From NCBI GenBank assembly GCA_965644495.1, contig CBFFSA010000022.1, positions 105,132 to 169,131 on the forward strand: a stretch of DNA of 64,000 bases, written 5' to 3'. The notes below the pieces were generated by a model. The model was given only the letters and a program-made list of their open reading frames with translations, was not told the DNA's origin and searched no databases. Both the position numbers and the translations under genes were made by a program. Numbering within the stretch: the stretch's first letter is position 1; each line of letters starts with the position of its first letter. Source of the stretch: Perkinsela sp. CCAP 1560/9 (Eukaryota; Protista; Euglenozoa: Kinetoplastea). Of this stretch, positions 11,496 through 52,329 are shown one piece after another.

Positions 11496-14400
11496 AACCT
11501 TGATATCAAATACACTGCCTTCTTTAGCCCAATTGGCGGACCCTGCGCCGGATGCGCAAACAACAGCCTCCAAGTCCAAACCAGTTGCGCAACCTGAAAT
11601 TCAGCCAGAAGAGTTCTACGACTGCAGCTCACCCGCGTCAGAGGAGAAAGGACAATCACCCAGCCCAGGCCGCATACCCTCGCCCCTGCCGCTTGATGAA
11701 GTGAATGTAGATTCGACGAACAATGCAGACCGACTAACGCAAATTGTGGACGACATGCGCGCAAACGTGAAACCTGAGACTGAGTTCCCATTGACGCCGC
11801 AAGAAGTGGAGTCACATACCAGAAATGCTCGGAAAGGCGACGAATGCGTGGTAGCGTGGTGTTTCGACCAACAAGTATTGTTAAACATCTCTGCTGGCAC
11901 AGTTCAAACGGCGAGATCAAGGGCAGGTGTACGCAGACTGACTGTAAAATACGACGGCCTACAAGGACACTGCAAGGAACGAAGCTTCGCGGGATCGATT
12001 CCTGCTCAGGAAAGTGTGCGCATCTATAAAATTGTATGGATTAACGTTTTGAATAGAGGCGCTCAAGACGAGCAAGTCGCGTCTGCAAAAGATATACCGT
12101 CTGTGAAGCAAACAGTCGAAGATTTGGATTACGAACCTATTCCTACAGTCAGAAACGTAAGCGCTGAATTTATACCGTGCGTGGTGTCGGTTTACCGCGA
12201 TCTTATGAGGGATTATGCAGATTGTGATTATGCTCACCGCTGTCGGATATGGCACAGGGTGCTCTCCGCGATGAAATACTCGCTGGCAGAATTAAGAGAG
12301 CAGTCAGCGCGCAGTCGACGACGTCGCCCAGTGCTTACGCAATCCGAGCTTCAAGAAAGAGAGAAGGACGCGGATGAAGGGCAATTCGCTGATCGCAGAG
12401 CGATAAAAAAAGCCACACGCCTTGTGCTCGAGGGATCGATCTCAAAAGCGGCAAAAGTTCTGGATCAGGTCACGGTAATCAACAAATTATCTGACAAAGA
12501 AACATTTGCCAAACTCCAAAAACTGCACCCTGCGGCTCCTTGCGTTTTCGAATTACCAGCAGACGCGACACAGACAGCGATCATAACAACGGAAGAACTC
12601 CGCGAGGCAGGTCGTCGATTGGCCAAGGGCGCGGCACCCGGTCCATCTGGGACAACGGACGGTATAGTCAGACTGTTGCTCGACGATCAAATCTGTTGCA
12701 CAGCTCTGTGTCACATGTTACTGGATGTTGTAAATGGAGCGATCTCGAAAGACGTGATGGACAGGTTGAAGAGGGCAAGGTTAGTCGCCATACCGAAAGC
12801 AAATGGAAGGGACGTGCGCCCGGTTGCTGTTGGGGAGATTTTTTTCTAAAATTAGCAGAGATCGTCTTGTTGCAAAAATATGAACATTGTCTGCCGCCGA
12901 TTTTTGCTCCGTGGCAATTCGGAGTGGCAACTAAATCAGGATGTGAAACAGTAGTACACCGCCTACATAAACTCTATCAGGAAGGACAATCAATCCTAAC
13001 AATGGACATCAGCAATGCATTCAACACTCCTTGGAGGCAAGACATCGCGAACGCACTCTTCGCGTTCTCTAGTTTGCGACCGTTCTGGAGGCTTTTTCAC
13101 GCTCAATATGCCGAGCCGTCGGAGCTGCTGTATTTTGGATCAGACGGAAAGTTACACGACAAAGTTTTCAGCACAGCAGGAGTTCGACAGGGGTCTCCCC
13201 TTTCTACGCTTCTTTTCTGTACAATGATGCAACCCATCCTCGCAACGCTGGCCTTAGAATTTCCCTCGATCAAAATATTCGCATACATAGACGACATAAA
13301 CTTTGCTTCGGATGATCCTGCACTCCTAACGAAGGCATTTTATAGAGTGTGGGATTTGTTGAATGAAAGAAACATGCAAATGGCAAATCATAAATGTGTG
13401 TGGTTCGGAGGAACGAAGGGCACGGAAATTCCGGAAGTTCTGCGAATGGCGCAAGTCAACGTAGAGAAGGACGCAATCAAGGTTCTCGGCGCTTACGTGG
13501 GAGAAGACGAAAAGGTAGATCCCCTACTACTAGAAAAGCTACAGAAACATAAAACAATTTTCCGTCGGTTAAGTCAGATGGGAGCGAGCAACGTATCTAC
13601 TATCCTGCTCTCTAAATGTGTTAACATTCGTCATCGTTTTCATATTCGCACACACACACCGAACTCCTCTGAAGCGATGGCAAAGGAGTTTGACGGCGAA
13701 GTTGAGAAAGTTCTGAAGACATGGTTCGGACCAATGACGCAAGATCAACTGGACTGGGCAAGGCTTCCCCTTCGTATGGGTGGGCTGGGCCTGCCTTCTA
13801 CTGATGCACTCCTGATGCGCAGTGTGGCTTTTGAGCAGCCAAAATTCCTTTCAGCTCAAGTCACGCCTAGCGAGTCGGACACTGCACCTGTCGCTGAGAT
13901 GACGGCAGTCGAAGTCAAGATGCACAAAGAAGTGAAGGAGCGCCTTCGGAAGAACAAGAAATTTGCAAGAATCATGGACGCTACAACGAAGAAGGGTAGT
14001 TATACATGGATACAAGCAAACGAGCGACTCGTGCCGTCGCGGAAATTCACCTTAGCAGTAATGCCCCGCCTGGGAATGGGCCATCCACGTCTTCCCGAAT
14101 CTCTCACCTGCCCCGGATGCAGAGTTCTTCTAAACAGTGCCACTGCCCTTACACATATTCCGGGTTGCGTCCGATGTGCGGGAATGAATACAACGGTAAA
14201 GCACAACGCACTAGTACGCTATATTCATAATATGTGTCTGCGTGCGGGTATTCCTTGTGAGTTAGAGCCACGGCAATTCTCCACATATGTGTGCACATCA
14301 TGCTCCGAGGTGATCCGAGAAGAACGTCGGCGAGAGCACATTGCGACATGCAAAGGCAGCACGCTACACCGTTCAGGGCCCGATTTGGTTATTTATTGGG

Positions 14401-16679: not shown

Positions 16680-16695
16680 TTTCTGTACCTTGTTG
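16680..16695 (+). other. Spliced-leader relic (3' 16 nt)
   Basis: TTTCTGTACCTTGTTG, 29 nt before ATG 16725. Confidence 0.75.
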
Positions 16696-16724
16696 ATTTT
16701 TACTACTTTGCTTTTCTTTCTTTT

Positions 16725-19700
16725 ATGTCAGAACCTCCCCCGAGGGCGGCGCAAGGCACGCCGTCGCATCCGCAGCAGAACACTGCAGCAGTGAGGTCCA
16801 CTGACGTAAAGGAGCACAACTTGAACTTTACGGAACAAGCGAATAGACACGAGATTGGATCATGGGACCAGTTTGAGGCAAACAAGAAACTCATCCAAGA
16901 CGCTAGCACGTACGACGACCTCATGTACACAACCCCCATTCCGCAGCATATTCCCCTCAACTGGCAAAAGAAGATGGAACACAAAGCGCAAAGCATCGAG
17001 AAAAACCCAACGTCAGACCACGGCCGCCACAACACGAAAGACGAGGAAACCGCTTTTGCCAGTGTTCGGAGAAATGAAATTCTACGAAGAAGTCAAACTG
17101 GAGAGTCATCCTTGAAAATTAAGATCAGAAAAGAGACACGACTGAAGAAAACTCCGAAAAAGATAAAAGTGATACTCCGTAGCTCTGATCTAACGAAGGC
17201 GAACCTCGGACAAGCGGACATGTCACATGACGAAGGATCGGAGAGCTCATCTGCATCAGGATCAGACATCTCGGAGGACGATCGGGTGGCCGAGGTCGCC
17301 GAAGAAACAATGAAAGCTCCGGACCAAATACTAAAGATAATCAACGACTGGGGAAAAGGAACTACTTGCGAGCTACATTGGAAATTCCGCCACAGCAGTG
17401 AGATTTATCAGTCGATTGGAGAAGTTGTTACGCGACATTCTAGAAAAGGTGCAATCAGGGTAAAGATTTCCTACACACCGCAGCATCAGCCAGGTCCATC
17501 AGGATTTCTATATCTACCTGCATCTCACAAGATTAACATCTTCCGATTACGGGTGGTAAAGCTCAACCGTATTGTGACACAAACGCCATTTTTGGATATC
17601 GAAGAAACACAAGATTGTGACACGGGATGCGACTTGGAGCTTCTTCCCCCACTCGCCCACATCGACCCCACGTTTGCCGCTCACGTCATAGCAATCTTTA
17701 GATCAATCCTGCGAGGATATCCCACGCTCAAGCTTATAACAGAGAAAACATCCGTCTGGCACAAGTTTCTAAACGCACCCCGCGACTCACTCACCACTGT
17801 GCGACAAGCGATCCAGCGGAAGTATCATGTGCCAAACAAATTGCGCAACGAGGAGCCGGCGTTCTCCTCACCTGACGAGAAACTTGAACGTGAAGTCGAC
17901 CGCCGATCAATCCGCAGTGCGCTTCGAACGGCTAGGGCTGGTAACCTAAGCAAAGCTACGCGTATCCTCGACAACGTATATTTTGACTCGAACCTTAGCG
18001 TTGAGGAGAAAGTAGCGGAGCTCAAGAGTCTACATCCCGATGGAGAGCGCCCACAAGCTCAGACGGACGCAGACCCCCGAACAGGAATCATCGAAAAACA
18101 CGAACTTCGGGCCGCGATAGAGAAACTGGCTCCGGGAGCTTCCCCGGGCCCTACGGGATTGAGTGAAGCCATGTTGCGCCTACTTGCGGATGACGAGGAA
18201 TCCAGCACCGCGCTCTGCCATATGTAGTGAACGGGGAGATCGCATCGTCGGTGCGTGACAGACTGACACGATGTCGACTAATGGCCATCAACAAACCGCA
18301 GAACGGAATACGACCGATTGCAATTGGGGAGACTCTATTGAAAGTATGTGGCTCGATCCTTCTAAACAGGAACGAAGAGAAACTGAAGAAATTTTTCCAG
18401 CCTGTCCAAAGAGGGATCCTCCAAAAGAATGCGTGCGAGGGAATTGTTCACGAGGTGCTCGATGAATATGACAAGGGACACGCCATCTTGGCGATCGATT
18501 ATAAGAATGCCTACAATACCCCCACGCGTCAAGCAATCTTCGAAGCACTCAAGAAAGACGGCATCTTCAAGCCTTTCATGCGGATTTTTAATCTTGAGTA
18601 CGGGGACTCGTCTGATCTGCTCTTCTTTGCCAATAACTCGCCCCATTCGATCGTGAAGAGCACTTCTGGCGTTCGACAGCGCTCAGCGCTTTCGTCACTA
18701 TACTTCTGTGCCCTGATACAGGATTCGCTCAAAGAAATCGAAGAGTCCTTTCCAGATGTAACGGTTCGAGCGTACATGGACGACATAACCTTGTCATCAA
18801 CAAATCCCCTATCCTTGCAGACCGCCTTTCTACACCTGCACGAATCTTCACGACTTCTGGGACTGGAAATGAACTTCCAGAAATGCGAATGGTTCAAGAA
18901 AACAGACACTCCATGGACGCCCCAAACTCTGCAAGCGATGGGGGTAGCCTGCCCGCAAGAAACAGTGAAAATTCTAGGTGCATATATCGGACAGGACGAG
19001 ATGGTAAGTGAATGCCTAAAGAAAAAGATGGACAAACACAAGTGTCTCTTTCGCCGTCTTCGACTCATGGGACCGAGCAACCTATCCCTCGCAATTCTGA
19101 ATCGGTGCGCCATCCCCCGTCAAGACTATCACCTCCGAGTACACAAGCCCGAAGCATCCCTTGAAATCGCCCAGCAGTTCGACGCGGAAGTAGGCAGTAT
19201 TATTCAGCATTGGTTTAATGCAACGGGCCCTACTGCAAAACTCGCCACACTTCCGCAATATCTCGGCGGACTCGGACTTACTCCGTCATGTTTGAAGCAA
19301 AAGCACTTTTTCCAAGCGTCTCGCAAAGCCATTGAAGAGCAATCCAAAACCAATAACGCTCCGGTGGTCATAGCGGGATCCAAGCGAAACAGGGCTCTGA
19401 ACGAACGTGGCAGCCAGAAGAATGATACTTCCAAGCGATTAGTCATGAAAGCAATACGATCTGAACAAAAACGATTTGCAACCGAGCTGAGAAAGGACAT
19501 GCGCCTCAAAGAACTAATGGAGCGAGGATCCGCATCATTTCACCACCTGCAATCAACCAGCAACTACATCAATCCGTACCTCTTCCGTTTCTGTATAATG
19601 ATGCGCCTGGGAATAGTGCCAGAAAATATGCCTAAGAGTGTGGTATGCCCGGGATGCCTGACAGAATATTCTTCTGATACCATCTTCCAGCACATTCCTG

Positions 19701-20287: not shown

Positions 20288-20712
20288 TCAGAATTTCCTT
20301 TCACTTACAACCTCTATTTGATTTGATAAAATTCCCCGTCATCTCCGTTGATATCATCTCATGATCTAAGTTGATATTAACTTATTTCAGATAAAGAGCT
20401 CATGGAGAGTATTGCTGCTGTTAATGTCTGTACTTTTCTCAATATGCTTTACAATAGGAGGAACCAAGGAGTGAATTTTGTTTGTTTGGAGTGAATTTTG
20501 CTTGTTTTAATAGCTTACTCATTATTCATTCTTCGCTTGGCATGTAACTCAGCCGTTATGGAAAAAGATATTTTATGTATAAAATGGTTTTCTATAGACG
20601 CAAATTAAGAAAATTTCATGTTGGAGTTTCTTGAACACACAACATTCTATAAATTGAATTCATAGTACAGATACTCCAAATTGTAACGGGGCAAAAAAAA
20701 TTTGACTGTGAA

Positions 20713-21582
20713 GTGATTGAGCTTCTGCGCAAGGACTACGAGGTCACCGTCGAGGCTGTATGGTCCCTTCCCCGTGACGGCCTACGGCAGACGGTTATAG
20801 GGTTGGTGCATATGACGCATCCTAAGGACCCTAACTCAACTGAGTTGTTCGCCGAGTGGGATGGGGACAAGAACACTGCCTATCGTTTTCCCCATCCCGA
20901 GATCAACTACCACTCTTTGGAACTGGCCCATGTTCGGGCGCAGATGCCGGGTGGGAAACCAGTTGAAGATCTGATCCCCACGTTTGAACGCGTCCGTATT
21001 ACGGACCCGAAAGGCTTCTCCCCCTACGATCCGGTTACTTGGCAACCGTGGATCGACACGGATGATTTGTTCAAGCCACGTGAACTCACCCGTGAGCTGC
21101 GCGAAGCTCCGCAGCTTGGGGTACGCTTCAACCCTCCGCCGCAGCGTGAGCGCCTGTTCAAGATGTTAACTGAATGGGTGTACGCTGCGTGCAATACGGA
21201 GGGATGGCTAGAGAAGCACAACCTCGCCGTAGCCCTTCTCATCATCGAAGAGCTTCGCAACCATTATTGGGCTGCGGCGGGCGTTGCTGTCGAGCGTGTG
21301 CAACAGCGGTTGCACCGTGACGACGACCCTCAGGACCGCTACGGTCAGCTTGTGGTTGACGAGCAACTGAGGGGCCGGACTGCGCAGCGTGCTCCTCGTC
21401 GACGCAGCCAAGGACCTTTCTGTTTTGGCTGTCATCAGCCAGGCCACCTCCGATCGAACTGCCCCCAAGCGTCCCAACAGCAGGGGGGGCAGTTCCGTAC
21501 CACACGCACCCCGCAACAGGATTTTCGCGGCGGGGTGGTGGGCGGCGCCAACCGTTACGGCGCAACACGGGCTTTCCACTAG
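20713..21582 (+). CDS. Gag-like protein of VIPER/TATE-like element (CCHC zinc knuckle), probably 5'-truncated
   Basis: CFGCHQPGHLRSNC knuckle; first ORF of a gag-YR-RT/RH series. Confidence 0.8.
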   Translation: MIELLRKDYEVTVEAVWSLPRDGLRQTVIGLVHMTHPKDPNSTELFAEWDGDKNTAYRFPHPEINYHSLELAHVRAQMPGGKPVEDLIPTFERVRITDPKGFSPYDPVTWQPWIDTDDLFKPRELTRELREAPQLGVRFNPPPQRERLFKMLTEWVYAACNTEGWLEKHNLAVALLIIEELRNHYWAAAGVAVERVQQRLHRDDDPQDRYGQLVVDEQLRGRTAQRAPRRRSQGPFCFGCHQPGHLRSNCPQASQQQGGQFRTTRTPQQDFRGGVVGGANRYGATRAFH

Positions 21583-21585
21583 GAA

Positions 21586-24476: not shown

Positions 24477-24518
24477 GGGACAGGATCACCAAATACAAAA
24501 AAAAAAAAAAAAAAAAGT

Positions 24519-31023: not shown

Positions 31024-34000
31024 ATGGCGGAGGCCTCCGGACCGTTCGAAAGTGTGTTGGAAGTCTGTGGCAAACTTCGGACGGCCAGGTGTGGTCGGGG
31101 CAACCTTTTTCTGCCTCCACAGCAGAGGGGGGTTGGGACAAAACTCCGGCAGCGGGCCCTTTTACAGATGTCAAAGGTTTTGGCTGTGGGAAAACGCGTG
31201 GCTGTTGTTTGGTGTATGGCTTATAACGAACGTATTACACTCTGGGAAGGGGTGGTTCACTCATCGCTTGATGGGTCTGGTTGGCTCGTCAAGTACGACT
31301 TGATGAATGGGCGCCTTCTCCCGTTTCCTCCGAGAGATGATCGTATCCATGTGCTAGGCGGCAGAGTTGGACTGCTTCCAAAATCTTTGCGCAAACGTAA
31401 TCGGAAACGCAAATCCTGCTTTCGGCGTGGCTACCGAGAGCAGAGACCCAAGATCAAAGCTATGAGAGAGGGGTTTGCAGTAAGCACCATGAATGTAGAT
31501 ACTTTAAAGTGTAAAACCACAGACGAGTTTGCTCTACGTAAATGTTTCCGTTTGCATCAAGCTGTAGAGTTCATGCGAAGTTACGGCGTAACAATAATGG
31601 CCTTGCAGGAAACGCGACTATCGTTCAAGAGCGAGGAACCGATCATTCATCGTAGGCTCTATCTGGCTGGCATTAGTGTTCATATATATATTATGAGTGC
31701 AATAAAGGGCTATAACGGAATGGCAATGCTGAGTCTGCAACCCATGGGTGTTGAAAAGATCAATGATCGCATTATGAAAGGAACAATGCATATTGGAAAG
31801 ATGAAGGCGTGTATATTTAATGTTTACTCCCCGACGGCTGGTGCAAAGAAAGATAAGCAAGAATCGTTTGATGAGGAGCTATTTGATGCTTGGCATGATT
31901 CACAATGTTCGCTAAAGATAATATGCGGAGACATGAACGCACCTTTGCAAGATCCAAATGGCAGAAAATGTTGTTCGGAAAGAGCGCAAGAATTTCGCAA
32001 ATTTTTGGTAACCCTTGGATCTAAATCGGCTCATCAATGTTGCAGCGCAGAAAGAAAGTGGACTTATAGGTTTCCACCTACGCCGAAACACCCTGATGGT
32101 CTAACAAAACAGCTTGATCATATCATAATAAATTCCCGTTTCAGCTCAGCATTTCGGTATCAGAAGGTGCTTTTGGCTCCCATACCTACGAGACACTGTG
32201 CAGTAATAGCAGGATTAAATATAAAATGGAGAGTGGCATGCAAACCTGGTAAGTTACAACCGTTTTGGGGATCCTTGAGAAACGAAACCATATGTGATAC
32301 ATTCGTGAAAAATGTGGAGGAGTCAATTCAGGGGGGAAATAAACGGTCACGAGAAGGGTCAATTGGTCCCGCTTTATGGGATAAGCTATCGTCCGCAGTC
32401 AACTCCGCCGCAGAGAAATTACCCAGGAAAATTGCCAATATTGGAAAAGCTCCTGACTCGGAAACTGACTCGCATTCCCTTGATATGAAAACTATTGTGC
32501 AAATTGCTCGAAATCGAAGGACTTTCGATACCTTTGCTCGAGAACATGGAAAAATGATTGAAGAATGCGTGAAAGAAGAATGTGAAGTGATCCAAGAAAA
32601 GCTATATAAATGTCCAAAAAGCGCGTATCAAGCAATTCGCTATATTGTAGGGGAAAATCGAAAAGTATTCTCCATGTTTGGTGAAAATGTTCGAGACAGT
32701 ATGTGCAGAGTGAGAGGACATTTTCAGGCGATAGGTAACCAATTAAATCAAATTTCCGAACCGATAAACTTTCCTAACTGTAATAAAAGCTTAATTGGTA
32801 TTGAGGATACGGAATTTACCCTAAAGGAGCTCAGAATTTCTCTGCAAAAAGTCAAATCTGGAAAAGCCTCAGGCTCCGACAACATTCCTATTGAGGCTCT
32901 CTCTACATTGGCTCAGAGCGAAGAAGCACTTGGCATGCTCTTGAACATAATAAATGAAGTAATGTGTACTGGTGCCGCGGCGGATAAATGGAAGATGATT
33001 CTGCAAGTGCCACTTCCAAAGAAAGGGAATCTCAATGATCTTACAAATTGGAGACCGATATGCATTGTAAACCATGTGGTAAAGGTAATGAACCGGATGG
33101 TACTAGAGCGTATACAACCAGCCGTTGAGAATATGCTTCGCTCAAATCAGTTTGGATTTCGCCCGCACCGATCCACTGCCGGCGCAAAGGCAACTTTCGT
33201 GGAAATAGCTACTAAAGCTTCGAGGGGAGAAGGTGTTGCGGTAGCGTTTGTTGACTTTAAGCAGGCATTTCCTTCCGTTACTTTCTCTGCAATACGAGAT
33301 GCGCTGAGAGCATTCCACATACCGGAAAATATTACTAAAGTTATTATGAGCATGTATGAAGGCCTGAAATCTTATGTGAGGACGCCTCATGGTGACACCG
33401 AATCGTTTTCTATTGAAAATGGTACTCTACAAGGGGATGTGCTCGCGCCATATCTCTTTATTATGGTCCTCGACAGGATTATGGCAGAGGCCATTGACGC
33501 GAAGGGGTTGGGTGTCATTGCTTATTCCACCGGGACGAAGAGTCGCGGCGAAAAGCACCTCCGAATTTCTGATGTGGCATATGCAGATGACGTAGTTCTC
33601 TTCGCTTCTTCTAGGTCTGAACTCTCCGAAATGCTAGAAAACCTGTGCAAGTATGCAAAGAGGGCAAACCTTCAGGTAAATCTGGGCAAAAACAAGACCG
33701 CATGGATGGTTCTAGGAAAAATTGATGACATGACAGCTCCCCTTCTAGTCCCAAGTGTTGGAGAAATCCCCCGAGTATACAAATATAAATATCTTGGAAG
33801 TACACAAGAGAATGAAAATCGTCATGTAGCCCCACAAGAACGCATTCGTCTAGGATGGGCCACAATGCATAAACTTCATGCGATATGGAACTCACCCATT
33901 CAAGTCGCAAGTCGGTTAAAAATATTTCGAACACTTGTTATGCCTGTTATTAATTACAACTGCGGCACGTGGAATATTTCATCGAATCAAATGAGCGAAT

Positions 34001-35319
34001 TGGACGTACAAGTCAGCAAAATGCGAAGATGGGTATGCGGAGTAGGGAAAAGATGGAAAACGGGAAAGTGCATTCGTCTTGAATCTCTTTATCAAGATGA
34101 CTTGAAACTCAGCACAACATCAAAAATACAACGTGCTCAACTTATTGGCCATCTTGTTCGACATGAATCGCCGTTTAGCCTAGCCATTCTGTGGCGCGTG
34201 CAAGACAAATCATCATACCCTTCGATCTCTGAATTATGCGCAAAAGATTTAAATCTTTCAATAGAAGAAGTCATACATTCGTCTCGGGACCGCGCCTTAT
34301 GGAGGTCAAGCGTTGATCGACTACGAAATCGGATCGAACCACGCCCTGATTATGTACCCATCGAAGCAAAATCATGGGAAAAACGAGCAATGGTTGCACG
34401 AAAAGAATATAAGTCACTACAATTCGTCGAAGAAGGCGCATTGCCATTCCCAAATATTTCTCCAGCCGTACACATGTATACTGATGGCTCCCTTAAAACA
34501 ACGAAATCGAAAGTTACTCCTGGATGCGGAATCGTGTGGTGGGGGGATGGTATTGAGAAGTCCTTAATGGGAGTACGACCTCCAACGGATATTGAGCTCA
34601 CCATAACTGCGGTAGAGCTCTATGCCGTATATGAGGCACTGAATCTTGCGGCACATTATGGGCAGGACATTGTATTACACACAGACTCAAAATACGTATG
34701 GGAATTCTTCCACATTATAAGGCATCGATTTTGCATAGTTGGGTTTCAATTATTCCAGAGCGCGCAACTACTCAAGAAGATACAACTTTTGTGTTCTAAG
34801 ATCGAGCAAAATAGCAATGTATATTGCATCAAAACCAGAGGGCATGAAGGAAACCCGCACAACGCAACCTCAGACTGGCTCGCTAAACGAGCTTGCGCAC
34901 ATCAAGACGAAAACCCTTCCTTTACTTACCGCGGTTTTGATATCGTGACCAATCAAAAGAGGAAAGGTAACGAAATTCAAAACAATATGAAAAAGAACAA
35001 AAACAAAAATACGAAATTACCAGAGTTTGCGCACACACCTATCGAAATGTCTCCTACGCACTCTATAAGCACGAAAAATAAAGGTAACCTGATAAATGAA
35101 AAGGGGAAACGATCAAGATCCAAGAACAAGCGTGAAAATGCGAATACGCACAGCAACCAAAAAGCACGAAAAGCTGATGGAAAGAGGAGTACGAATACAT
35201 ATTCACCAGGATTCGCAGAGGTAACTTTAGCAAGAAAGCATCCACAAAGAAAGCGAGCTAATTGTGAAGAGGAGTGCAAGAGAACTCGAAAGGGGGGGAG
35301 CTCTTCTTCTAAAACGTGA
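31024..35319 (+). CDS. Intact single-ORF non-LTR retrotransposon polyprotein: APE endonuclease, RT, RNase H (Ingi/L1Tc-like architecture)
   Basis: APE: STMNV, LQETR, NVYSPT, GDMNA, LDHI; RT: KASGSD, WRPI, QFGFR, DFKQAF, GTLQGDVLAP, YADD, YKYLG; RNase H: YTDGS, VELYA, TDS, GH..N..SD. Confidence 0.95.
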   Translation: MAEASGPFESVLEVCGKLRTARCGRGNLFLPPQQRGVGTKLRQRALLQMSKVLAVGKRVAVVWCMAYNERITLWEGVVHSSLDGSGWLVKYDLMNGRLLPFPPRDDRIHVLGGRVGLLPKSLRKRNRKRKSCFRRGYREQRPKIKAMREGFAVSTMNVDTLKCKTTDEFALRKCFRLHQAVEFMRSYGVTIMALQETRLSFKSEEPIIHRRLYLAGISVHIYIMSAIKGYNGMAMLSLQPMGVEKINDRIMKGTMHIGKMKACIFNVYSPTAGAKKDKQESFDEELFDAWHDSQCSLKIICGDMNAPLQDPNGRKCCSERAQEFRKFLVTLGSKSAHQCCSAERKWTYRFPPTPKHPDGLTKQLDHIIINSRFSSAFRYQKVLLAPIPTRHCAVIAGLNIKWRVACKPGKLQPFWGSLRNETICDTFVKNVEESIQGGNKRSREGSIGPALWDKLSSAVNSAAEKLPRKIANIGKAPDSETDSHSLDMKTIVQIARNRRTFDTFAREHGKMIEECVKEECEVIQEKLYKCPKSAYQAIRYIVGENRKVFSMFGENVRDSMCRVRGHFQAIGNQLNQISEPINFPNCNKSLIGIEDTEFTLKELRISLQKVKSGKASGSDNIPIEALSTLAQSEEALGMLLNIINEVMCTGAAADKWKMILQVPLPKKGNLNDLTNWRPICIVNHVVKVMNRMVLERIQPAVENMLRSNQFGFRPHRSTAGAKATFVEIATKASRGEGVAVAFVDFKQAFPSVTFSAIRDALRAFHIPENITKVIMSMYEGLKSYVRTPHGDTESFSIENGTLQGDVLAPYLFIMVLDRIMAEAIDAKGLGVIAYSTGTKSRGEKHLRISDVAYADDVVLFASSRSELSEMLENLCKYAKRANLQVNLGKNKTAWMVLGKIDDMTAPLLVPSVGEIPRVYKYKYLGSTQENENRHVAPQERIRLGWATMHKLHAIWNSPIQVASRLKIFRTLVMPVINYNCGTWNISSNQMSELDVQVSKMRRWVCGVGKRWKTGKCIRLESLYQDDLKLSTTSKIQRAQLIGHLVRHESPFSLAILWRVQDKSSYPSISELCAKDLNLSIEEVIHSSRDRALWRSSVDRLRNRIEPRPDYVPIEAKSWEKRAMVARKEYKSLQFVEEGALPFPNISPAVHMYTDGSLKTTKSKVTPGCGIVWWGDGIEKSLMGVRPPTDIELTITAVELYAVYEALNLAAHYGQDIVLHTDSKYVWEFFHIIRHRFCIVGFQLFQSAQLLKKIQLLCSKIEQNSNVYCIKTRGHEGNPHNATSDWLAKRACAHQDENPSFTYRGFDIVTNQKRKGNEIQNNMKKNKNKNTKLPEFAHTPIEMSPTHSISTKNKGNLINEKGKRSRSKNKRENANTHSNQKARKADGKRSTNTYSPGFAEVTLARKHPQRKRANCEEECKRTRKGGSSSSKT

Positions 35320-38498: not shown

Positions 38499-38542
38499 AA
38501 AAATTAACCCGTACCTCGGAAAGAGATGAAATAGAAAAAATT

Positions 38543-38581
38543 CAACAAGGTACAGAAACTGTATCTTTATCGTTAAAGATT
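38543..38581 (-). other. Complete 39-nt spliced-leader copy
   Basis: AATCTTTAACGATAAAGATACAGTTTCTGTACCTTGTTG; contains the kinetoplastid SL core ACAGTTTCTGTAC..TTG; directly preceded by poly(A). Confidence 0.88.
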
Positions 38582-39200: not shown

Positions 39201-42200
39201 CTACTCGTTCCCATAGCCTAGGAGCGCTGAATCAGGACCCACAGCAGGCCGGCGTAGGACGAGCATGCGGGCTTGGGATCTCATGAGGGTTACATTTAGG
39301 GATGTAAGCAACCGGTGTAGAGCATCCCCTTTCGGTAAAATATCCCCGGAATTGGCATTGCATGCCCTACCTGCAGCAACCACCCTAAGGATTGACATTG
39401 CGCTAGGGCTCCACGAGCCAAACGATTCTACCACCATGGCGGTAAACTTCATTCGCACCGCTTCAGCCTCTTCTCGTTGTTTAGCCTTGTTGGCGGTCGC
39501 GTATTGCTCCGCAAACGACCCCGCCGTCACCCAGTTAGCGTCACGGACTGTGTCCGTATATTTTTGTTGCTGGACATGAGTGACAGCGAAGTCGAGTACG
39601 AGGGCCTGACCGCGACCGAAACTTCGGATGAATACGTCCCCAGGTCTGGTGAGTGCGCCACCCGGACCTATGTTCCCCAAACTCACTTCTCTTTGAGGGG
39701 CAAGCCCGGCCTTTGAACATTCCGCAGAGAATTGGGATACCAAGGCACTGTGCCGAGCAGTGATCCCGTGCCCGCATTTGCATGCCAGTGCGTGTTCACC
39801 CCCTGGGCCTAAGGGCTGTTTGCACTTTTCCATGGGGCAGGGACGGAGGCCCGGGTAGATGGTTTCCCCCAGCCACCAACGGATTAACATGCGAAACTCC
39901 GTGGGGGCGTACGCAAAGCCGTTCTTTTTGGACGGCAACACGAAAGCCCACTCCGACGCCCCTTCTCCCGTTTCCGAGCTCCACCGAGCCCTCGTGCTTG
40001 GATCAGCGTGGGCGAGTGCGTGTTCGAACGCGTGGGATGAAATAGCATGGCTCAGGTCCCTTTGTCGAGGTATGACCAATTTATTGTCTATTTCATGGAT
40101 CGGATTGGTTTGAAAGGGTTGGTGCTCTGAAACGGCCGAGCTTTGTAGAATTTTGCCCGTTTCATTGTCAACGATATTCTTCCCTGCGCGTTTGTTCACG
40201 TCGATCACTGCCTCATCGAAATCTTTTGCGTCCGTTGGATCCCAAAAGTCTTTCTCCGCTGCGAAGGCGACTGAGGCCACATAAGCGGAGGCAGAATGCT
40301 CCTCAGCTGAACGGAGTCCCAAGCCACCAAACCGTTTGCCTCTCTGTGCTTGGCGCCTTGCTGCGTCGCTGAATGGCCCGAAAAAGTGTGAGGTAGCGTC
40401 TTGCACTGCGTCGTCGAGACGTCGGCAGAGATCCTGGAGCTCCGACGTTGGGGTAGTACGGAGTGAGTAGACCATCTGACAGAAGCCCGTGCAATGCCGA
40501 ATAAGTGAAAGGGCTACCTGGGGGTCCTCGAGGTTGGTAATGGCTTCCAGCGAGTCCTCTGCGTGTTCAATGGCGTTGTCAAGGAGAAATTGACGGCGGA
40601 ACTCGGTTGTCCCTACAGGGCTACCTAACATATGGAAATTACCCTCAGTGTTTTTATTCGATCCAGGTAGGTCGGGGAAGACAGAAGAACGATGAGACGA
40701 TGCGGGGTGCGCAGCGAGTTCACATTTCGCAGCATTCAGATGTAAACCCCATCGCGGGCCGTTTAGTTCTAGCACATCAAATGCGTGTCGTACATCGCAT
40801 GATGCGCCCGCCAGTATTCCGTCATCTAGATACCATAGATTCAGGTCTAGTTTCGGTGTTGCCGCGTGGATTTCCGAAGCAAGCTCCCTCATAACCAGTG
40901 AGAAGAGGAGGGGGCCAAGGGGGTCGCCTTGTTGTACCCCTTCAGAAGACTTTACCGTACGCGTACCGAATGTGAGTAAACTTTCTGTAGAATAACACCA
41001 CTCTACATAATGACTGAGTTCGGGAAAGTGCATGCGCGTTAAATCAGTGAACCTGTCACGGGACACCTGGTTGAAGGCATTCCGGAGGTCTATTTTGCAT
41101 AGAAGGAAGTCGTCATCGTCTACGTGGGCCGCGAATGTCTGACGGCAAAGATGGATAACACGTTCCGCCCCGGCCGGTGTAGCGACCCCGTATTGGTGTC
41201 CCTTAAAAAGTTTGCGGGCTCTGGTTTTGGCAGAGAAGCAAGCAACTTTGCTGGCCAAGCGGCGAAGGGTTTCACCAGCGGCGATCGGGCGTACGTCGTG
41301 TTCCCCCTTCTTCAAGGCACACAATCGACCTCCAGCGTAGTGGCTTTTGACTTCTAATGGTGCTTTTCCGGCTAGCATGTGATTGGTGAACTTTGTGAGT
41401 ATTTCCAAAGGACCGGTCTGACCATCGTGATGACCATGTATAGCAACTTGCACGTGTTCCGGCCGCAGACCAAAGGCACCCCCGGAGGAACCCCGATGAA
41501 AAGTCGAGAGTGCCGCCGATACTTCATCCTCCGTCACTTTAAGAGGTTCCACGTCCACTGATGGGCTGGGTGTATCTGATGCGGAGAGTCGGGGGGGATG
41601 CTTTGCCTGAAGCTTTGCGTAAGTCTCATCATTGTCCGGAGCGAGTGGCGCAGATGTCAGTGCGGTCATGGCGCGTGAGAGCTCCCCGTCACGTACGAGT
41701 CTTTCGGCTCGTAGTGCGGATTTTTTCTCTTCTTCTTCGAGACTCTGCGCTTTCTCCACGCTTCTCTTCTTCTTGCCCGTGACGCTCTTGACAGCTTCAG
41801 CCCAGAGCGCCAGGAACTCTTTCTTGGACCAGCGAGAAAGGCATTTCCGTACGTGGGAAGCATACGATGTTTTCGCCCGGCTACCTCCTCGATGGGGGGC
41901 AGGTATAACGCATTTGGGCAGCATAGCGAGGAGAGTCCACGCTTCAATGGTATTCTCTCGGATTACCGAATCTAGACACCCGCAAAGCGCCTTTGCCCAC
42001 TCTGGTCGGCAGCTGTTGGGTATATCTTTGCAAGTGGTAATGGGCAAGGCGCATATGGAAAAGAGACTTGGAAGGGGTGTGTCACTGTTCATTATATAGG
42101 TTTCGTCGGTAGTGTTCTGGTCTGCCTGTGCGTCGGATATTTCGTTTTTCTCTAGCGGCACGTCAGCACTCGAGACAGAAGTGTCGTCACTCGGTGTGGG

Positions 42201-43226
42201 GTTCCGTTGAGTGTGCGTCGAGGAAGCGCGGAACGAGCAATTCTTAATATGAGCGTCCTGTTTGCTTAGATCATAATGTTTTTCACATTTTCGGCATCGA
42301 AATCTTCCTTCCCCTGTCCACCAGCTGTCCGGAGCTTCGTCTCCATGTCTGTGGGCTACGTGATTATAGTATGATTGCCATTGACCACCGTGCGGCCCCG
42401 TCGTCCAGGTACACCCCTGAATAGGACATTTCCGGAACGTGTCACTTTGTGAAAGTGCCTTTCTGGGTGTAGCAACCACATTTCTGGCTGTATTCGGTTG
42501 GGTGTAAGCTTTTTTAAGGGCTTGATCGTGGCGCTTGCGCTTTCCTTCGGGGGGGACGGGGGTTTGGTCTTTCGGAGGAGAGTCTGTGACATCCCCGTCA
42601 CTGCTATCACTTGTGGGAACACTACTCACTTGAGAATACTGGGTGGTCTTAGGGCTCTTCTTCTTTTTTCGTCTTCCTGGCCGTGCGCTGATCGAAAAAT
42701 CGAGGTCATTTTGAGTAAGGTCTGGAAATACTATGTCATTCTCGTTTTGTTGAGAGTCGTTCGGATTCGTTTTCCGGAGGACGCGTTCGCACTTCTCCTT
42801 TACAGCCTTATTTGATAACTTGGATTGGCTGAGCAAAGAAGAGTCAGAGCCTATGAATTGGAATCGAAAACCCCCGTTTTCCTCCTGAGCGCAATTTTTC
42901 TCCCCAAAGCGAGCACCTACATTTTCCTCCTGAAGGACATTGGAATGAATATCTGCCTCAGTCATTCCGTCAACGTGACCTGTGTCAGGTGTTGGGCCGG
43001 CAGGTGCGTTTGTTATGCTAAAGGCAATGTCTTCCGCTTGCTGTATTTTTTCAGGGGAAAGGTCCTGCGGTATTTCTGTGGTGTAAAGTAGTTCGTCGTA
43101 AGTACTCTTCCCGTTCGTTAGGTGTTCGTTAGCCTTAAATTGATCATACGACCCTACCTTGTGAGAGGCAGCTTCCTTCCCAAAGTTACAGTCCGTTCGT
43201 GTTTTAGAACTCGTTGACACGCCCAT
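39201..43226 (-). CDS. Intact CRE-like polyprotein (LsmAD-like, 2 Zn fingers, RT, CCHC, restriction-like endonuclease)
   Basis: ATG at 43226; GVQQGDPLGP, WYLDDG, CPMEKC..H..C, RH, RPGD..LDFAV, K, VVESFG. Confidence 0.93.
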   Translation of the reverse strand: MGVSTSSKTRTDCNFGKEAASHKVGSYDQFKANEHLTNGKSTYDELLYTTEIPQDLSPEKIQQAEDIAFSITNAPAGPTPDTGHVDGMTEADIHSNVLQEENVGARFGEKNCAQEENGGFRFQFIGSDSSLLSQSKLSNKAVKEKCERVLRKTNPNDSQQNENDIVFPDLTQNDLDFSISARPGRRKKKKSPKTTQYSQVSSVPTSDSSDGDVTDSPPKDQTPVPPEGKRKRHDQALKKAYTQPNTARNVVATPRKALSQSDTFRKCPIQGCTWTTGPHGGQWQSYYNHVAHRHGDEAPDSWWTGEGRFRCRKCEKHYDLSKQDAHIKNCSFRASSTHTQRNPTPSDDTSVSSADVPLEKNEISDAQADQNTTDETYIMNSDTPLPSLFSICALPITTCKDIPNSCRPEWAKALCGCLDSVIRENTIEAWTLLAMLPKCVIPAPHRGGSRAKTSYASHVRKCLSRWSKKEFLALWAEAVKSVTGKKKRSVEKAQSLEEEEKKSALRAERLVRDGELSRAMTALTSAPLAPDNDETYAKLQAKHPPRLSASDTPSPSVDVEPLKVTEDEVSAALSTFHRGSSGGAFGLRPEHVQVAIHGHHDGQTGPLEILTKFTNHMLAGKAPLEVKSHYAGGRLCALKKGEHDVRPIAAGETLRRLASKVACFSAKTRARKLFKGHQYGVATPAGAERVIHLCRQTFAAHVDDDDFLLCKIDLRNAFNQVSRDRFTDLTRMHFPELSHYVEWCYSTESLLTFGTRTVKSSEGVQQGDPLGPLLFSLVMRELASEIHAATPKLDLNLWYLDDGILAGASCDVRHAFDVLELNGPRWGLHLNAAKCELAAHPASSHRSSVFPDLPGSNKNTEGNFHMLGSPVGTTEFRRQFLLDNAIEHAEDSLEAITNLEDPQVALSLIRHCTGFCQMVYSLRTTPTSELQDLCRRLDDAVQDATSHFFGPFSDAARRQAQRGKRFGGLGLRSAEEHSASAYVASVAFAAEKDFWDPTDAKDFDEAVIDVNKRAGKNIVDNETGKILQSSAVSEHQPFQTNPIHEIDNKLVIPRQRDLSHAISSHAFEHALAHADPSTRARWSSETGEGASEWAFVLPSKKNGFAYAPTEFRMLIRWWLGETIYPGLRPCPMEKCKQPLGPGGEHALACKCGHGITARHSALVSQFSAECSKAGLAPQREVSLGNIGPGGALTRPGDVFIRSFGRGQALVLDFAVTHVQQQKYTDTVRDANWVTAGSFAEQYATANKAKQREEAEAVRMKFTAMVVESFGSWSPSAMSILRVVAAGRACNANSGDILPKGDALHRLLTSLNVTLMRSQARMLVLRRPAVGPDSALLGYGNE

Positions 43227-43259
43227 GTAATGGTTGAATGTAAGAAAGAAAAAATAATT

Positions 43260-43297
43260 CAACAAGGTACAGAAACTGTATCTTTATCGTTAAAGAT
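43260..43297 (-). other. Spliced-leader copy (38 nt)
   Basis: ATCTTTAACGATAAAGATACAGTTTCTGTACCTTGTTG, 33 nt before ATG. Confidence 0.88.
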
Positions 43298-44609: not shown

Positions 44610-47600
44610 TCACTGACGCAGTCCACCAATCCAATGTGCTTCTGGAATATACTCGCGGAGCTGCGATACAATAGTATACGCTGCTAGCTTTTCTATCTCG
44701 AGTTGGAAGGCCTCACGTACGTCTTCGTACTTTTGTTTGGCTCGTTGGGATAATGCCTTGAGGAGGGTTTTGGTGTCGTTGTGCAGAAGACCGCAGTCAG
44801 AGGCGGCCAGGCAACGAAAAGAGTCGCTTTCTACGCCTTTCTCCGTAACGTACTTCTTGAATTTCTTGTCGAGCACGTGCTGCATCAGCGCTGTACTTGT
44901 TTGTTTGGCATAGCTGCTGCAACAAGTGTGAACAACGGTAAAATCATACAGGACCTCCCCCATGTGGGGCCACATAATAGCAAGATCAGTACCGGATCGG
45001 ATTCTGCGGGCTTTGCAAGGATGATGTTCAGCTACTTCCGCTGAGATGGAACACTTGCACTTAGTACAGAAAAACGAAGAATGGATGCGCGGTTCGATAA
45101 TACAAGGGAGACCAGCTTTGGAGCACAAATCTGCGAGGTACCTCACTATGTGTGAGTGCTTTCTGGTGCAATTCATGCCCGAGCACCGGGAGCATCCTGC
45201 GACGTGTGGTATAATGCTGGTAGGAGATTCATGGCCACAGCATCCAGGGCATATAACATCGGCCGGTGCGTTATGTAATCCGATGCCCAAACGCATCATC
45301 AAAGTGTATCGGAAGAGGTACGGGTTTACATAATTGCTGGTGCTTTCTAAATGCATGTTTGATTCCTTTGTACGCTTCAATAAAAGTCCCATGTGAGAAT
45401 CCTTCTGCAGCTCAGTTATCTGTTTATCGTGTTCTGCACTTAGCTTCTTTTTCAATAGCTTGCGCGCTGCCTCTCCTCGACTTTGCGGTTGTTTCACAGC
45501 TTTTTCGCTGCCTTTCTGATCTACCGGAGCGTTATTGGGTTTAAGGTGCTCATCAATAGATTTGCTGGCAGTTTCGAAGAAATGTTTTTGCTTCAGAGTC
45601 GAGGAAATTAAGCCTAGGCCACCGAGTTTCTGTGGTAGAGCGGCGAGTTTCAGGGCGTTTGCGTCTGCTCCACTCCACTTTTCTAGAACTTTGTTTACTT
45701 GGTTCTCGAAGGATTGTGCTAGTTGGAAAGTAGCGCCTGGCCGATGTACTCGTAGATGGTAATCGTGCCGTGGAATCGTACAACGGCGGAGAATGGCAAG
45801 AGACAAATTACTGGGACCCATAAGCAACAACCTGCGGAATAGGCACTTGTGTTTCTCCATTTTCTTGATCAGCAGATTTTCCACGACTTGGTCTGTACCT
45901 ACGTATGCGCCTAAGACTTTTATCGCATCACTGCAAAAGTTTACTCCAAGTTTTTCCAACGGAGGAGGCTGAGCTATGTTGGGAATGTTCTTCTGAAACC
46001 AATCGCATTTCTGGAAATTAATTCGGAGGTTCATCTCTGCGGCGATCTCACGCAGGTAAAAGAAAGCTGCCTCCAATGCTTGCACGTTTTTGGAGCTCAA
46101 AGTCACATCGTCTTGGTATGCTCGGATCTTCACGTCAGGATAGAGGTGCATGAGTTCTCGTAGCGGGCCTTGCAAAAGTGCGCAGAAGTACATTGATGAA
46201 AGTTCCGATCCTTGGCGAATTCCTGAAGAGCTTTCGATGGTAGCAAACAGAGCATTGTGCGCAAAAAATAGCAGCTCAGAGGGAATCCCATATTCTAGGT
46301 AGAATAGGCGCATGAAAGGCTTGAAAATGGGATTACCAAGGAGTGCCTCAGCAATGGCGTTGCGTTGTGGTGTATTATACGCGTTGCTAAAATCGACGGT
46401 GAGGAGAGCATGTCCTTCTTCGTATTCATTTAAAAGTTCGTGAACGATGGACTCACATGCGTTTTTTTGCAAAATGCCTCGTTGAATTGGGGAGAAAAAA
46501 TTTTGCAGAGCGTTTTCATGTCGTTGTAGAAGGATGGAACCGCAAATCTTCAGAATGGTATCCCCCATCGCAATAGGTCGAATTCCATTTTGAGGTTTCG
46601 CTAGCGCGATGATTCTGCATCGGGTTAGACGTTTTCGCACATTCAGAGGAACTTCGCCGTTGATGACATCCCGAAGCATGTGGCAAAGTGAAAGACATGA
46701 CTCTTCGTCGTCTACGAGCAGTCGCATCATGCTTTCACTCAGGCCGGTTGGTCCTGGTGAAGCGCCTCTGGATAATTTTTCGGTCGCTAGGCGAACCTCT
46801 GATTTCTCAACAACGCCAGTCCGTGGGAAGTCTGCTTCCGGGATTCGTATGGCGTCGCCTTCAGGATGAAGTTGTTGAAGCTTTCGCACTTTTTCTTCAG
46901 GAGTGAGAGCTGATTCCTTGTAGACATTGTCCAGGATCCGAGTTGCTTTGCCAAGGTTTCCTGCCCGCGCCGTCTGTAGGGCGTGCCTGATCGAACGCCT
47001 GTCAATTTCTAACTCCGCCCGTTGTTCCGCACTCAAGTTGCTAGCTTCCAAGTTTTCTCGGTCGTTGCGAACATGAGCTACTTTTTGGTTTCGTCGAATT
47101 GCTTGACGTACTGTCGCAAGTGAATCGCGAGGCGCATTCAAAAATTTGTGCCATATCGCCTCTTTTTCTGAGTCAAGCTCCGCCGCTGCATATCCCCGAA
47201 TTATCGCACGGAAAATCGCCACAACATGAACCGCGAAAGATGGGCCTATTTGAGCCATAGGCGGGAGCGGATCAAGGTCACTCTGACCGTCTTCGCATGA
47301 GATGTGCTCCGCTTGTTCCTCCAAATTTTGTGTCGGCATCTCGATTTTGAATAACTTAGTGGCTTGGAGGTTACAGATTCTGATTTTATTGGACGGTGGA
47401 AGATAAAGAAAACCGCATGGACCATCGTGACCTAGAGCCGGCTCGTATGAAATCTTGACTTTCACGGTTGATTTTCGCACGGTCCTGCCTACAACGATGC
47501 CGTTTGACTTGTAGTTTGTAGTGTTCTGTCGGAAGCCCCATTCGATCACACATTCTGTACCCTTGCCCCACTTGGAAACGATGTTGTACACTTGGTCGGG

Positions 47601-48098: not shown

Positions 48099-48129
48099 AA
48101 GCGTAGAAAAATAGAAAATTAAAATGAAT

Positions 48130-48142: not shown

Positions 48143-49545
48143 TAAGCATGATTTTTAATTCAGGTTTCGTTGCAGCAAACAATACAATATCATCCGCGTA
48201 ATCAATGTCAGAAATTCTCAGTTCTTTGAGTCCTCGACTTTTTGTCCCGGATGTGTGCGTTACCAGCCCGAGCTTGTTCATGTCAATATCCTCTACCAAA
48301 ATTCGGTCCAGAACCATAACAAATAAGTAAGGAGCTAGAACATCTCCTTGAAGAGTGCCGCTTACAATAGGAAAATCTTCCGTTGTTCCGTAAGGGGTCC
48401 GTACATGAGATCGAAGATTTTTGTAAATTGACATCACAGCTGCACTCAGTTTTGGAGGTATTTCAAAAGCTCGGAGAGCCTCTTCAATCAATGATTCATC
48501 TTACTTTGCTTGCTTGTTTGCTCGTTTTTCCTAGAAGGATTGTTATTCCAGGTTGAAAAGTGATATTCAAAAAGTGTATCAATATCCACCTAATTGCCAC
48601 GGTGCCAATACTACTGTCGAATTGTTTGGTCCATTGTATTCTCTCAAAATGATTGAAAAACATAGCACGGGAAGCCTCTTTTATGGAGTCGAACGATATT
48701 GATGGAAAGGCTTTCTTGAAGTCTACGAAACATGCGTACACGCCTGTTCCTCTGTGCGATTTGCTTGCAATCTCCATAAATGTTGCCTGCGCGCCTGCTG
48801 TAGATCGATTCGGGCGGAAACCAAATTGGTTCCCACGGAGAGACTTCTCTACTGCTGGTTGGATGCGGTTTAGGATCATTCTGTTCAACACTTTAACCAC
48901 ATGGTTGACAAGGCATATTGGTCTCCAATTTCCCAGTGATTGCAAGTTTCCATTTTTTGGCAGCGGTACCTGTAATATGGACTTCCAAGATTGTTCCGCG
49001 TTCCCAGTTTCATGAACATCGTTCATTATATCAAGCAAAACAGTTCTCAACTCGCTGTCATCTGAAATTGCTCTGAGCGCCTCGATAGGTATGCTATCAG
49101 CCCCAGGAGCTTTTCCCGATTTGACCATTTGAAGAGCTGAAGACAATTCTTCTGGGCGAAATTTTCCGTCGTCAATCTGTTCTAAGCGTTTCGGTGCCGT
49201 TGGAAATCGAATGGTGCCTTTTTCAGCCACTGTCTCGTGTCCGACTTTCGAAAAATGATTTCTAACTGCTTCGAGACTTTCTTTGGCAGTTCTCCCAAAT
49301 ATTGCAAATTCACTTCTATTATCCCCAACAATATTTCGTATGGTTCTATACGCTGATTTAGGCGCCGATTTTAGTTCCTTTTCCAAAATTTCACACTCAG
49401 TTAAAATAGATGTCTCAATTCGATCAGAAAATATCTTAGTCGCATGTTTAAATTCACTTTTGCTGGAAACTACTTTCATAATATTCTTTAAGTTTAACAC
49501 ATCTGGGTCAATTTCCGAAAGAGCCGCATTATCCGCATTTTTTAT
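48143..49545 (-). pseudogene. RT fragments of a further APE-LINE family, interrupted at ~48495-48670
   Basis: KAPGAD, WRPI, QFGFR, DFKKAF; GTLQGDVLAP, DYADD. Confidence 0.88.
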
Positions 49546-49549
49546 TTGA

Positions 49550-50108
49550 TCCCCTTGACGCTGAAGGGATCGCATGTAGGCTGTTACTGTCGACTTTTGC
49601 AATTGACCCCCAGATCGGAATATGATTTGTATCAGACTCTTTGCATACGTATGTGCGGTTTGGATGCTGATGGTACCCGTTGAGTTTGCGGATTGATTAG
49701 TCTCATTTTCGACTCCAAGAAGCATATTATGCACCAATCTTCGCTTGGAACGTCATTTCCGAGATTTTCCTTCCAAACTGTATACTGTTTGTATACGCTG
49801 GAAAGGTGATTCCAGCGCGAGTTGGATTTCTCTTCTAATAGACGATCCTGGCCTAGTACGATCATTTGTTGAACGTCGACTGTAGGAATCGCGGCTCTTG
49901 TTTCTCTGTTGCCTTCCACGCGGTCGAGGAAGAGGTCTTCGATCTCCAGTAAGTTCTTTGCTCTTGATCTTGTTACTATCCCTGTAAAAGCCCTGTTGCT
50001 CGTGGAAGGTTGCTTGTACTGAGTACTTCGGACATGACTGGTAGTGCCGGCGCCGGTTGTGGTTTCCGTTTGATTTCCGTATGTTTCGTTTCCCGGGTAC
50101 GAGGACAC
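49550..50108 (-). pseudogene. N-terminal fragment of a second VIPER-like tyrosine recombinase (frameshifted)
   Basis: CFLES...TAHTYAKSL...VTAYMRSLQRQG aligns by eye with LFLET...TRMGYAGAL...LSLYVKALQAQG of 21586-22770. Confidence 0.6.
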
Positions 50109-50821: not shown

Positions 50822-50860
50822 AATCTTTAACGATAAAGATACAGTTTCTGCACCTTGTTG
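50822..50860 (+). other. Complete 39-nt spliced-leader copy (one T>C change)
   Basis: AATCTTTAACGATAAAGATACAGTTTCTGCACCTTGTTG, 23 nt before ATG 50884. Confidence 0.88.
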
Positions 50861-50883
50861 ATTATTTACTTTTTTTACCTTTC

Positions 50884-51556: not shown

Positions 51557-52329
51557 TCAGAATTTTTTCCCTTGCGGTTTTGTCATCGGGCCCGCGTTTC
51601 GCCCTGTTCGGTCGTTTTTTGTATCCATGGCTTTGATCATTGCAGGTAGAATTTTTCCCCGCAGTCCCCCGGTCGTTTTTGCTTCTTCAAGAACCTGTGC
51701 GAAGACGCGGCAGTCCCCATGTTGAACGCGAACTTTGTAAGCAACCAACGCCGCCAATATGTTGTCCCCGACCGCCATGTTCCCGTCTGATTTCCATACA
51801 AGTCCCATTTTCATTGAGTTTCGCACCCAAGCCAAAAATGCTAGCAACAAATCGTTCTTCCGATGCTCGTCTTGGTGATAGCGTGGGGCATTGCGTTCGG
51901 CAGCTCCAATACCAAAGTAGCGACGCAAATGAGCGTCCAATTCCACAAAACTACGATCTCGCGTCTCCGAGGGTGCCTCGATGAACATCGCGTACGTAGA
52001 TAATTCAAGCGGTTCGAACGTTCCAGTCTCTCGGCCTTCAACACGCTCCATCGCAGCGGAGTAAGGGTCAGTGGCGAGTTTCTCCACCACACGTAATCGA
52101 GCATTCGTCGGAGGAAACGTAAGCTCGCCAATTTCGCATAGTCCACCAACATGGTTGTTTTCTCTTCGCCAATCTTCTTCACCACTCCCTTCCACATTTC
52201 TCCACGTGGCACTTTGTCTGAGGACCATAAAACCGCGATAGTGTCGCCAACCTGACTCTCGGCCACAAACCGTCCAATGCGAGAGTCAGATAGTTGGGGG
52301 AGGTCATTCACGGTGCGTTTTTTTTGCAT
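51557..52329 (-). pseudogene. Gag-like ORF of a second VIPER-like family, frameshifted at ~52120
   Basis: FEPLELSTYAMFIE / FLAWV / W..GNMAVG..IL align by eye with FSPYDPVTWQPWID / LTEWV / W..HNLAVA..II of 20713-21582. Confidence 0.6.

Follow-up and report, generated by a model that had tools for sequence, protein, structure and literature searches.

An 80-residue module with a predicted Spindlin-like Tudor barrel in proteins of three groups of retroelements

Retroelements of the window and the seven motif segments

The window, that is, the whole 64-kb stretch of DNA analyzed here, is densely packed with nested retroelements and tandem arrays. Two intact LINEs, each encoding APE, RT and RNase H in a single ORF, are accompanied by one gag-YR-RT/RH element at 16070-24476 and by CRE-type elements, of which at least six have a readable N-terminus. 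LINE A (31024..35319, + strand) encodes a barrel segment followed by APE (aa 171-373), RT (665-926) and RNase H (1148-1291), and it is wholly covered by one 4764-bp contig of the run X2. The ORF of LINE B lies at 54785-58864 (- strand). One ORF with APE, RT and RNase H defines INGI in the available part of PMC12278014, and both LINEs possess this layout.

The gag-YR-RT/RH element, hereafter element D, has the gag-like ORF, the YR and the overlapping RT/RH of VIPER (DIRS order). Its CCHC-bearing gag lies at 16070-16687 plus 20686-21582, the YR at 21583-22770 and the RT/RH at 21360-24476, all on the + strand. Integrase PHROGs were matched only at E 0.12-0.18. When split direct repeats were sought, no repeat of 40 nt or longer was detected within 15900-25000. 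A further gag-like ORF, ORF1 C, is located at 51557-52311 (- strand).

In the CRE-type elements, RT was identified with Pfam and the RLE motif by eye. The module is carried by elements E (11431-14756, +) and F (about 16682-20710, +) and by the intact ORF of G (44610-48128, -), directly before the conserved RT N-terminal region. In three other CREs, which have no barrel, the same slot holds two zinc-finger-like motifs (39201..43283, -, used as an internal control; 24963-26777, +; 37083-38627, -). Weak matches to LsmAD (PF06741, Ataxin-2/Pbp1), with E 0.001-0.011 and below the cut-off, were observed in the N-termini of four CRE ORFs (16680-18224, +; 39204-43283, -; 37086-38627, -; 24963-26770, +). 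These stretches are present in CREs of the barrel type and the zinc-finger type alike, and might be a second captured module.

By domain layout only, the elements match three of the four kinetoplastid clades in the available part of PMC12278014, and a kinetoplastid-like protist is therefore the presumed host. In what could be consulted of PMC12278014 and PMC6681497, INGI has APE-RT-RH in a single ORF, CRE/SLACS/CZAR have RT with an RLE-type C-terminus, and VIPER has gag-YR-RT/RH with CCHC. CRE/SLACS/CZAR are inserted in the spliced-leader gene, whereas the target of CRE F is the VIPER-like gag: it is nested in gag D at the start of barrel D, with 8-bp duplications at 16674-16681 and 20711-20718.

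Second copies with over 99% identity exist for the RT/RH of the YR element (8509-10373 versus 22650-24514) and for the 5' part of CRE F (120-739 versus 16680-17299), and they point to recent activity. Arrays of 18-bp units, with 22 to over 290 copies, occupy 26778-31009, 58877-64000, 6818-8508 and 4798-5185. Two of them stop 12-14 bp short of the ATGs of LINE A and LINE B; one of the others precedes a LINE 3' fragment and one a YR RT/RH fragment. The relative P0008 suggests a short array in other copies of LINE A. A search of the window against Rfam gave no matches.

A sequence-only reading of the window had described a Tudor/SH3-like pattern in seven segments. All seven were found at their positions, in frame within retroelement proteins (two LINEs, three CREs and two gag-like ORF1s). 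Barrel A (31150..31389, +) corresponds to aa 43-122 of the LINE A protein and is in frame with the APE; W63, W74 and Y91 occupy the cage positions described below, and FPP is at 101-103. Barrel B (58511..58720, -) forms the N-terminus of LINE B, barrel C (52061..52266, -) belongs to ORF1 C, and the divergent barrel D (20710..20958, +) to the CCHC-bearing gag of element D. Barrels E (11818..12054, +), F (17340..17576, +) and G (47337..47588, -; used for structure modelling) are in the CRE-type proteins.

A regular expression derived from the earlier pattern matched six places in the six frames, which are all of the segments except that at about 20730. In 500 within-ORF shuffles it gave a mean of 0.006 matches, a value that applies to a pattern chosen post hoc. 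For the segment at about 52085-52270, the motif was confirmed and the FPP was not; in this copy, which is frameshifted near 52129, the FPP lies in another frame. The frameshift does not occur in contigs of three of the four sequencing runs, and P0100 and P0103 are intact relatives.

Relatives of the module and comparison between element classes

The profile of the seven segments was searched against 1.84 billion protein representatives with a threshold of E 0.001 or better. Sixty-one matches were obtained and 52 were kept as credible relatives. The other nine (P0014, P0018, P0022, P0028, P0029, P0031, P0036, P0057 and P0060) were left out because their scores were summed from weak stretches of repeat proteins. 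Outside the barrel, 39 of the 52 relatives resemble an element of the window; P0048 is tied to an APE via its cluster member P0135. Pfam gave no family above cut-off over the module in any of the 52. Relatives of gag D were taken from a separate single-protein search (16 matches). The relatives come from ENA, JGI/IMG and Logan. Since their short contigs include LINEs only 35% identical to those of the window, the family probably reaches beyond this genome.

Each protein carries one or two copies of the module. Two tandem barrels are found in P0048, P0056, P0059 and P0044, and the second barrel of these proteins has Phe in place of the first Trp. The LINE P0053 possesses a C-terminal PHD finger in addition to the barrel. 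Among four full-length LINEs, the barrel (35-40% identity) is as conserved as the APE (33-38%), and the linker shows 21-29%. Locus scans detected nothing for P0085 and A8 in genome contigs, for P0068 in metagenomes or for A8 in viral contigs. The metagenome scan with A8 gave one locus, L001, in which a 297-nt tandem pair stands before the C-type ORF. P0085 (TSC57182.1), a C-type gag, is the one named member in the 20 clusters of matches that were looked up; it is entered as a hypothetical protein from a Peregrinibacteria MAG, and its source is probably a mis-binned eukaryotic contig.

For comparisons between classes, we assembled sets of 14 LINE, 4-5 gag-C, 11 gag-D, 10 CRE-F/G and 19 CRE-E barrels, free of near-duplicates and truncated matches. 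P0030, P0037, P0046 and P0062 were classed by likeness, having no BLAST flank match, and three barrels belong to no class. With the seven window segments alone, the expected detection of one class by the profile of another was weak: the LINE profile found C at E 0.022, and the CRE segments were missed by the other classes. With database relatives included, it was obtained for LINE, gag C and CRE. The profile-profile probability was 98.5% for LINE-gagC, 93.5% and 87.2% for LINE-CRE, 66% and 18% for gagC-CRE, 8% for gagD-LINE and 15% for gagD-gagC, values biased toward cross-detection by the retrieval of most relatives with a mixed profile. These pairs exceeded 40 of 40 block-shuffled decoys, and gagD-CRE was at decoy level. 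The comparison of A3 with A4 gave 94.9% and E 5e-8.

A profile free of CREs detected the three window CRE barrels as its first non-members, at E 9e-5, 3e-4 and 0.027, with the next unrelated match at 0.79. Under the LINE-only profile, the gag-C barrels had a median of 36 bits, the CRE barrels 14.5 bits and the top-scoring single stretch of a PDB Spindlin 7.5 bits. The profile built without gag D missed segment D. Downstream of the barrel, C-type and D-type ORF1s are homologous (HH 86%, with a score of 43 where decoys did not exceed 20). The barrels therefore hold the same place in related gags, and D is likely a homolog of the other barrels, as judged from the remainder of the gag. The same homology also supports the gag identity of C. 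The profile comparisons, the CRE-free detection and the homology of gags C and D agree in indicating one homologous module across the segments.

In a domain tree of 62 rows and 82 columns, each of the groups CRE-E, CRE-F/G and gag D, and weakly also gag C, was set apart from all other rows by a single branch. The base of the tree did not resolve. The notion that the module was swapped among LINE, CRE and YR elements can be kept in a narrower form, since these class groups point to few, old events: the module likely spread between the element groups by a small number of ancient domain transfers.

Alternatively, the barrels were captured separately from different host Tudor/SH3 genes or converged on a generic pattern, and LINE and gag C alone share an origin. 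Such a history would suit the 14-18 bits of the CRE barrels under the LINE profile, which are near the 13.6 bits of whole-chain Spindlin, as well as the weakness of D and the poorly resolved base of the tree. However, a Pro-rich turn before the last strand is common to all versions, no architecture of a cellular Tudor protein was found with Pfam in the 52 kept relatives, and the CRE barrels are detected by a profile that contains no CREs. We consider separate capture or convergence very improbable.

Predicted fold and residues at the cage positions

Two versions were folded with AlphaFold, using an alignment of LINE and gag-C barrels (17 rows, two of them without class) and a CRE-only alignment (20 rows). 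The pLDDT was 88.6 for barrel A and 92.9 for barrel G. Both models share a helix and five strands in an SH3-like arrangement, so that the common beta-barrel anticipated from the sequence pattern, which is the fold of the Tudor/Royal family, was predicted for both.

For barrel A, Foldseek placed Spindlin at the top (E 0.026). In the wide VIA search, Spindlin was again at the top (Z 7.0, rmsd 3.3, 68 aligned) and the next match, at Z 6.2, included ribosomal bL19-like and WYL-type chains; a second look with VIA aligned residues 49-120 of Spindlin repeat 1 (Z 7.7, rmsd 3.2, 69 aligned). Z values of 7-7.7 are within reach of unrelated small folds. The PDB sequence search with A gave 19 matches down to E 10, of which 17 were Spindlins and the others AGDP3 and the RDM15 Tudor; the best had E 0.014. 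The LINE-only profile gave Spindlins in five of six rows, the gag-C profile gave the RDM15 Tudor at E 0.019, and chromodomains came up at E 0.12-0.44 with the profile of all seven segments. Nothing relevant was retrieved from PDB sequences with the D alignment or with the CRE alignment, the latter including its flanks. Each search alone is non-significant, and the evidence for the Spindlin likeness of A is their agreement. The Tudor/Royal likeness proposed from the sequence can thus be given more precisely as Spin/Ssty-like for the LINE and gag-C versions.

Other searches were less specific. Barrel G matched generic SH3-like barrels, with bL19-like chains at the top (Z 6.3), the Tudor-knot and RDM15 at 5.6, and LSm at 5.2. 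A reading of the module as an LSm ring, prompted by the nearby LsmAD motifs, was set aside, LSm chains being below Spindlin for A and tied for G. The ESM Atlas gave Tudor/Agenet clusters at 0.75-0.77 for A, which we treat as a lead only, and nothing for D. The BFVD fold search gave no match at E 0.001 or better. No curated Tudor model of Pfam was matched above its cut-off; P0100 reached E 0.0072 with SMN_Tudor (16.8 bits against a cut-off of 22.7). Likewise, PF02513 was not matched above cut-off, one of 17 members reached E 0.19, and no triple repeat was found.

With the Spin/Ssty repeat 1 of Spindlin1 (PF02513; 4MZF, 5JSJ; the accessible part of PMC3967050), the module shares the predicted barrel, the W/W/Y positions and, in some LINEs, tandem copies. 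In contrast to Spindlin1, it is about 25% identical and far below the Pfam cut-off, is usually single, is basic in the LINE and CRE versions, has an N-terminal helix and an FPP turn, and is fused to retroelement proteins.

In the PDB sequence alignment, the invariant W/W/Y of the LINE version is aligned to W62, W72 and Y91 of Spindlin1 (numbering counted from the range of 7E9M in the search output). According to the accessible part of PMC3967050, these three residues form the pocket for R8me2a. The first aromatic residue is present in 14 of 14 LINE, 5 of 5 gag-C, 11 of 11 gag-D and 28 of 29 CRE barrels. The second Trp is present in 13/14 LINE and 5/5 gag-C barrels and in none of the 11 gag-D or 29 CRE barrels, where the position holds Val or Ala (gag D, 11/11) and Ser or Pro (CRE, 29/29). 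The third residue, Tyr or Trp, was found in 12/14, 5/5, 11/11 and 29/29, respectively. By alignment, the set of three cage residues is thus present in LINE and gag C, not in CRE or gag D. The fourth cage position (Y98/Y177 of Spindlin) is F or Y in 8 of 14 LINE and 3 of 5 gag-C barrels, and Leu in barrel A. The median net charge is +5 for LINE, -1 for gag C, -3 for gag D and +7 to +9 for CRE.

These residues bear on a different explanation, in which every version is a small beta-barrel that, like bL19, WYL, LSm or the Tudor-knot, binds nucleic acid and grips element RNA or target DNA, with the aromatics stacking on bases or playing a structural role. The basic charge of the LINE and CRE barrels would fit this, as would the bL19- and WYL-type chains less than 1 Z from Spindlin in the wide search and the CRE barrel's place in a zinc-finger slot. 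For the CRE barrel in particular, bL19, Tudor-knot, LSm and WYL barrels with basic surfaces were the top or tied matches (Z 5-6.3), although at 11-18% identity the fold alone is shared. On the other hand, the gag barrels are neutral or acidic, likeness in sequence was found solely to Spindlin and RDM15-type readers, and the aromatics fall on known cage positions. We therefore judge nucleic-acid binding by all versions unlikely, though it is the strongest of the competing explanations.

Possible roles of the module and its neighbors

The reading that we prefer is an 80-residue module with a predicted Spindlin-like Tudor barrel, which stands at the N-terminus of INGI-like LINE, VIPER-like gag and CRE proteins and was handed on in few old transfers. 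In LINE and gag C, the likely ligand of the conserved W/W/Y pocket would be methyl-lysine or methyl-arginine, with chromatin as the most likely place of binding, and this binding might tether the protein-RNA particle of the element. The CRE version, which has lost the pocket, would be a derivative likely to bind nucleic acid in place of the zinc fingers. The LINE barrels are basic, unlike the acidic surface of Spindlin, which argues against binding of a histone tail; together with the Leu at the fourth cage position of A, this leaves our confidence in the whole reading evenly balanced.

A related possibility concerns the ligand. RG-methylated Sm and Argonaute proteins are ligands of Tudor domains, and the pocket might read methyl-arginine on such non-histone RG-rich proteins (RNP or silencing factors), so that it would serve particle assembly or evasion of silencing, not the choice of sites. 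The best-matching Spindlin pocket does bind Rme2a, P0100 matches SMN_Tudor weakly, and in YR elements the module belongs to the gag and not to the integrating recombinase. Nevertheless, the closest solved matches are histone readers, and one LINE has added a PHD finger. Methyl-arginine on non-histone proteins is, in our view, distinctly unlikely as the main ligand.

Stated at its fullest, our preferred reading would make the module a retroelement-only family of Spindlin-like methyl-mark readers, passed among three major element groups of a protist lineage. In INGI-like LINEs and YR gag it would have stayed a caged reader, in some cases as two copies or together with a PHD finger; in one CRE branch it would have become a basic barrel that binds the target and took over from the zinc fingers. 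This fuller version is tentative, and we lean slightly to doubt it.

The sequence-only reading further suggested that the module could explain the pile-up of the elements. This was not supported: a 62-domain profile detected no barrel in the three zinc-finger CREs of the window, and since these barrel-less elements share the cluster, the module is not needed for clustering here.

Capture of reader domains by transposons is established, mostly for PHD and Chromo, according to the available part of a survey (bioRxiv 10.1101/2021.11.30.470311), whose supplementary list of 823 fusions may include Tudor cases. Chromodomain- and PHD-bearing transposons (chromoviruses, e.g. MAGGY) likewise carry a Royal-family or reader domain on an element protein, with an inferred role in tethering. 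In chromoviruses, however, the domain is at the integrase C-terminus, whereas here one Tudor-like family stands at the N-terminus of proteins from two non-LTR clades and of a YR gag. The gag-like proteins of VIPER/TATE are described as having no known domain in the available part of PMC6681497; the words Tudor and SH3 are absent from its available text and from 12 of 13 readable supplements, five alignment files being outside this count. Tudor is likewise absent from the text of the trypanosomatid mobilome paper, and a Tudor-like module is not mentioned in the available parts of PMC3783388, PMC6338049 and PMC3441728. In the literature covered, which includes few subscription journals and not Repbase, we found no Spindlin-like family common to three retroelement groups.

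On the basis of its sequence, we regard this reader-like module as a new, previously unnamed domain family on retroelements, distinguished by its occurrence in three element groups and its class-specific changes. It provides a candidate function for N-terminal regions that lack annotation in INGI-, CRE- and VIPER-like proteins, among them the gag described as having no known domain, and is one accessory module common to non-LTR and tyrosine-recombinase elements. A single genome here offers a natural comparison between barrel-bearing and zinc-finger CREs. Should the cage bind a methyl mark, it may serve to probe the methylation of histones or of arginine in a protist that has been little studied, and may be a non-animal relative of the Spin/Ssty repeat.

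Of the ORF that comes after ORF1 C in other copies, the window has only the first part (49543..50086, -), which is cut off by a LINE fragment. In contigs of all four runs, ORF1 C is directly joined to this ORF (joint 50086-51394). The start is weakly like the N-terminus of a tyrosine recombinase; 9 of 500 shuffles were equally good, and BLASTP with this ORF found nothing. For the ORFs flanking C-type ORF1, BLASTP and Pfam were negative for YR or RNase H identity, and further shuffle tests gave 98/1000 and 32/1000, the latter with an alignment at an unexpected place. A YR identity is thus no more than suggested for the ORF that comes after C. Between the joined ends, at 50087-51393, lies a 1307-bp non-coding insertion. 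Other copies do not have it, and its depth in contigs is very high in each of the four runs; it is probably a high-copy non-autonomous element. Immediately upstream of ORF1 C, at 52333-53614, there are seven copies of a 177-bp unit.
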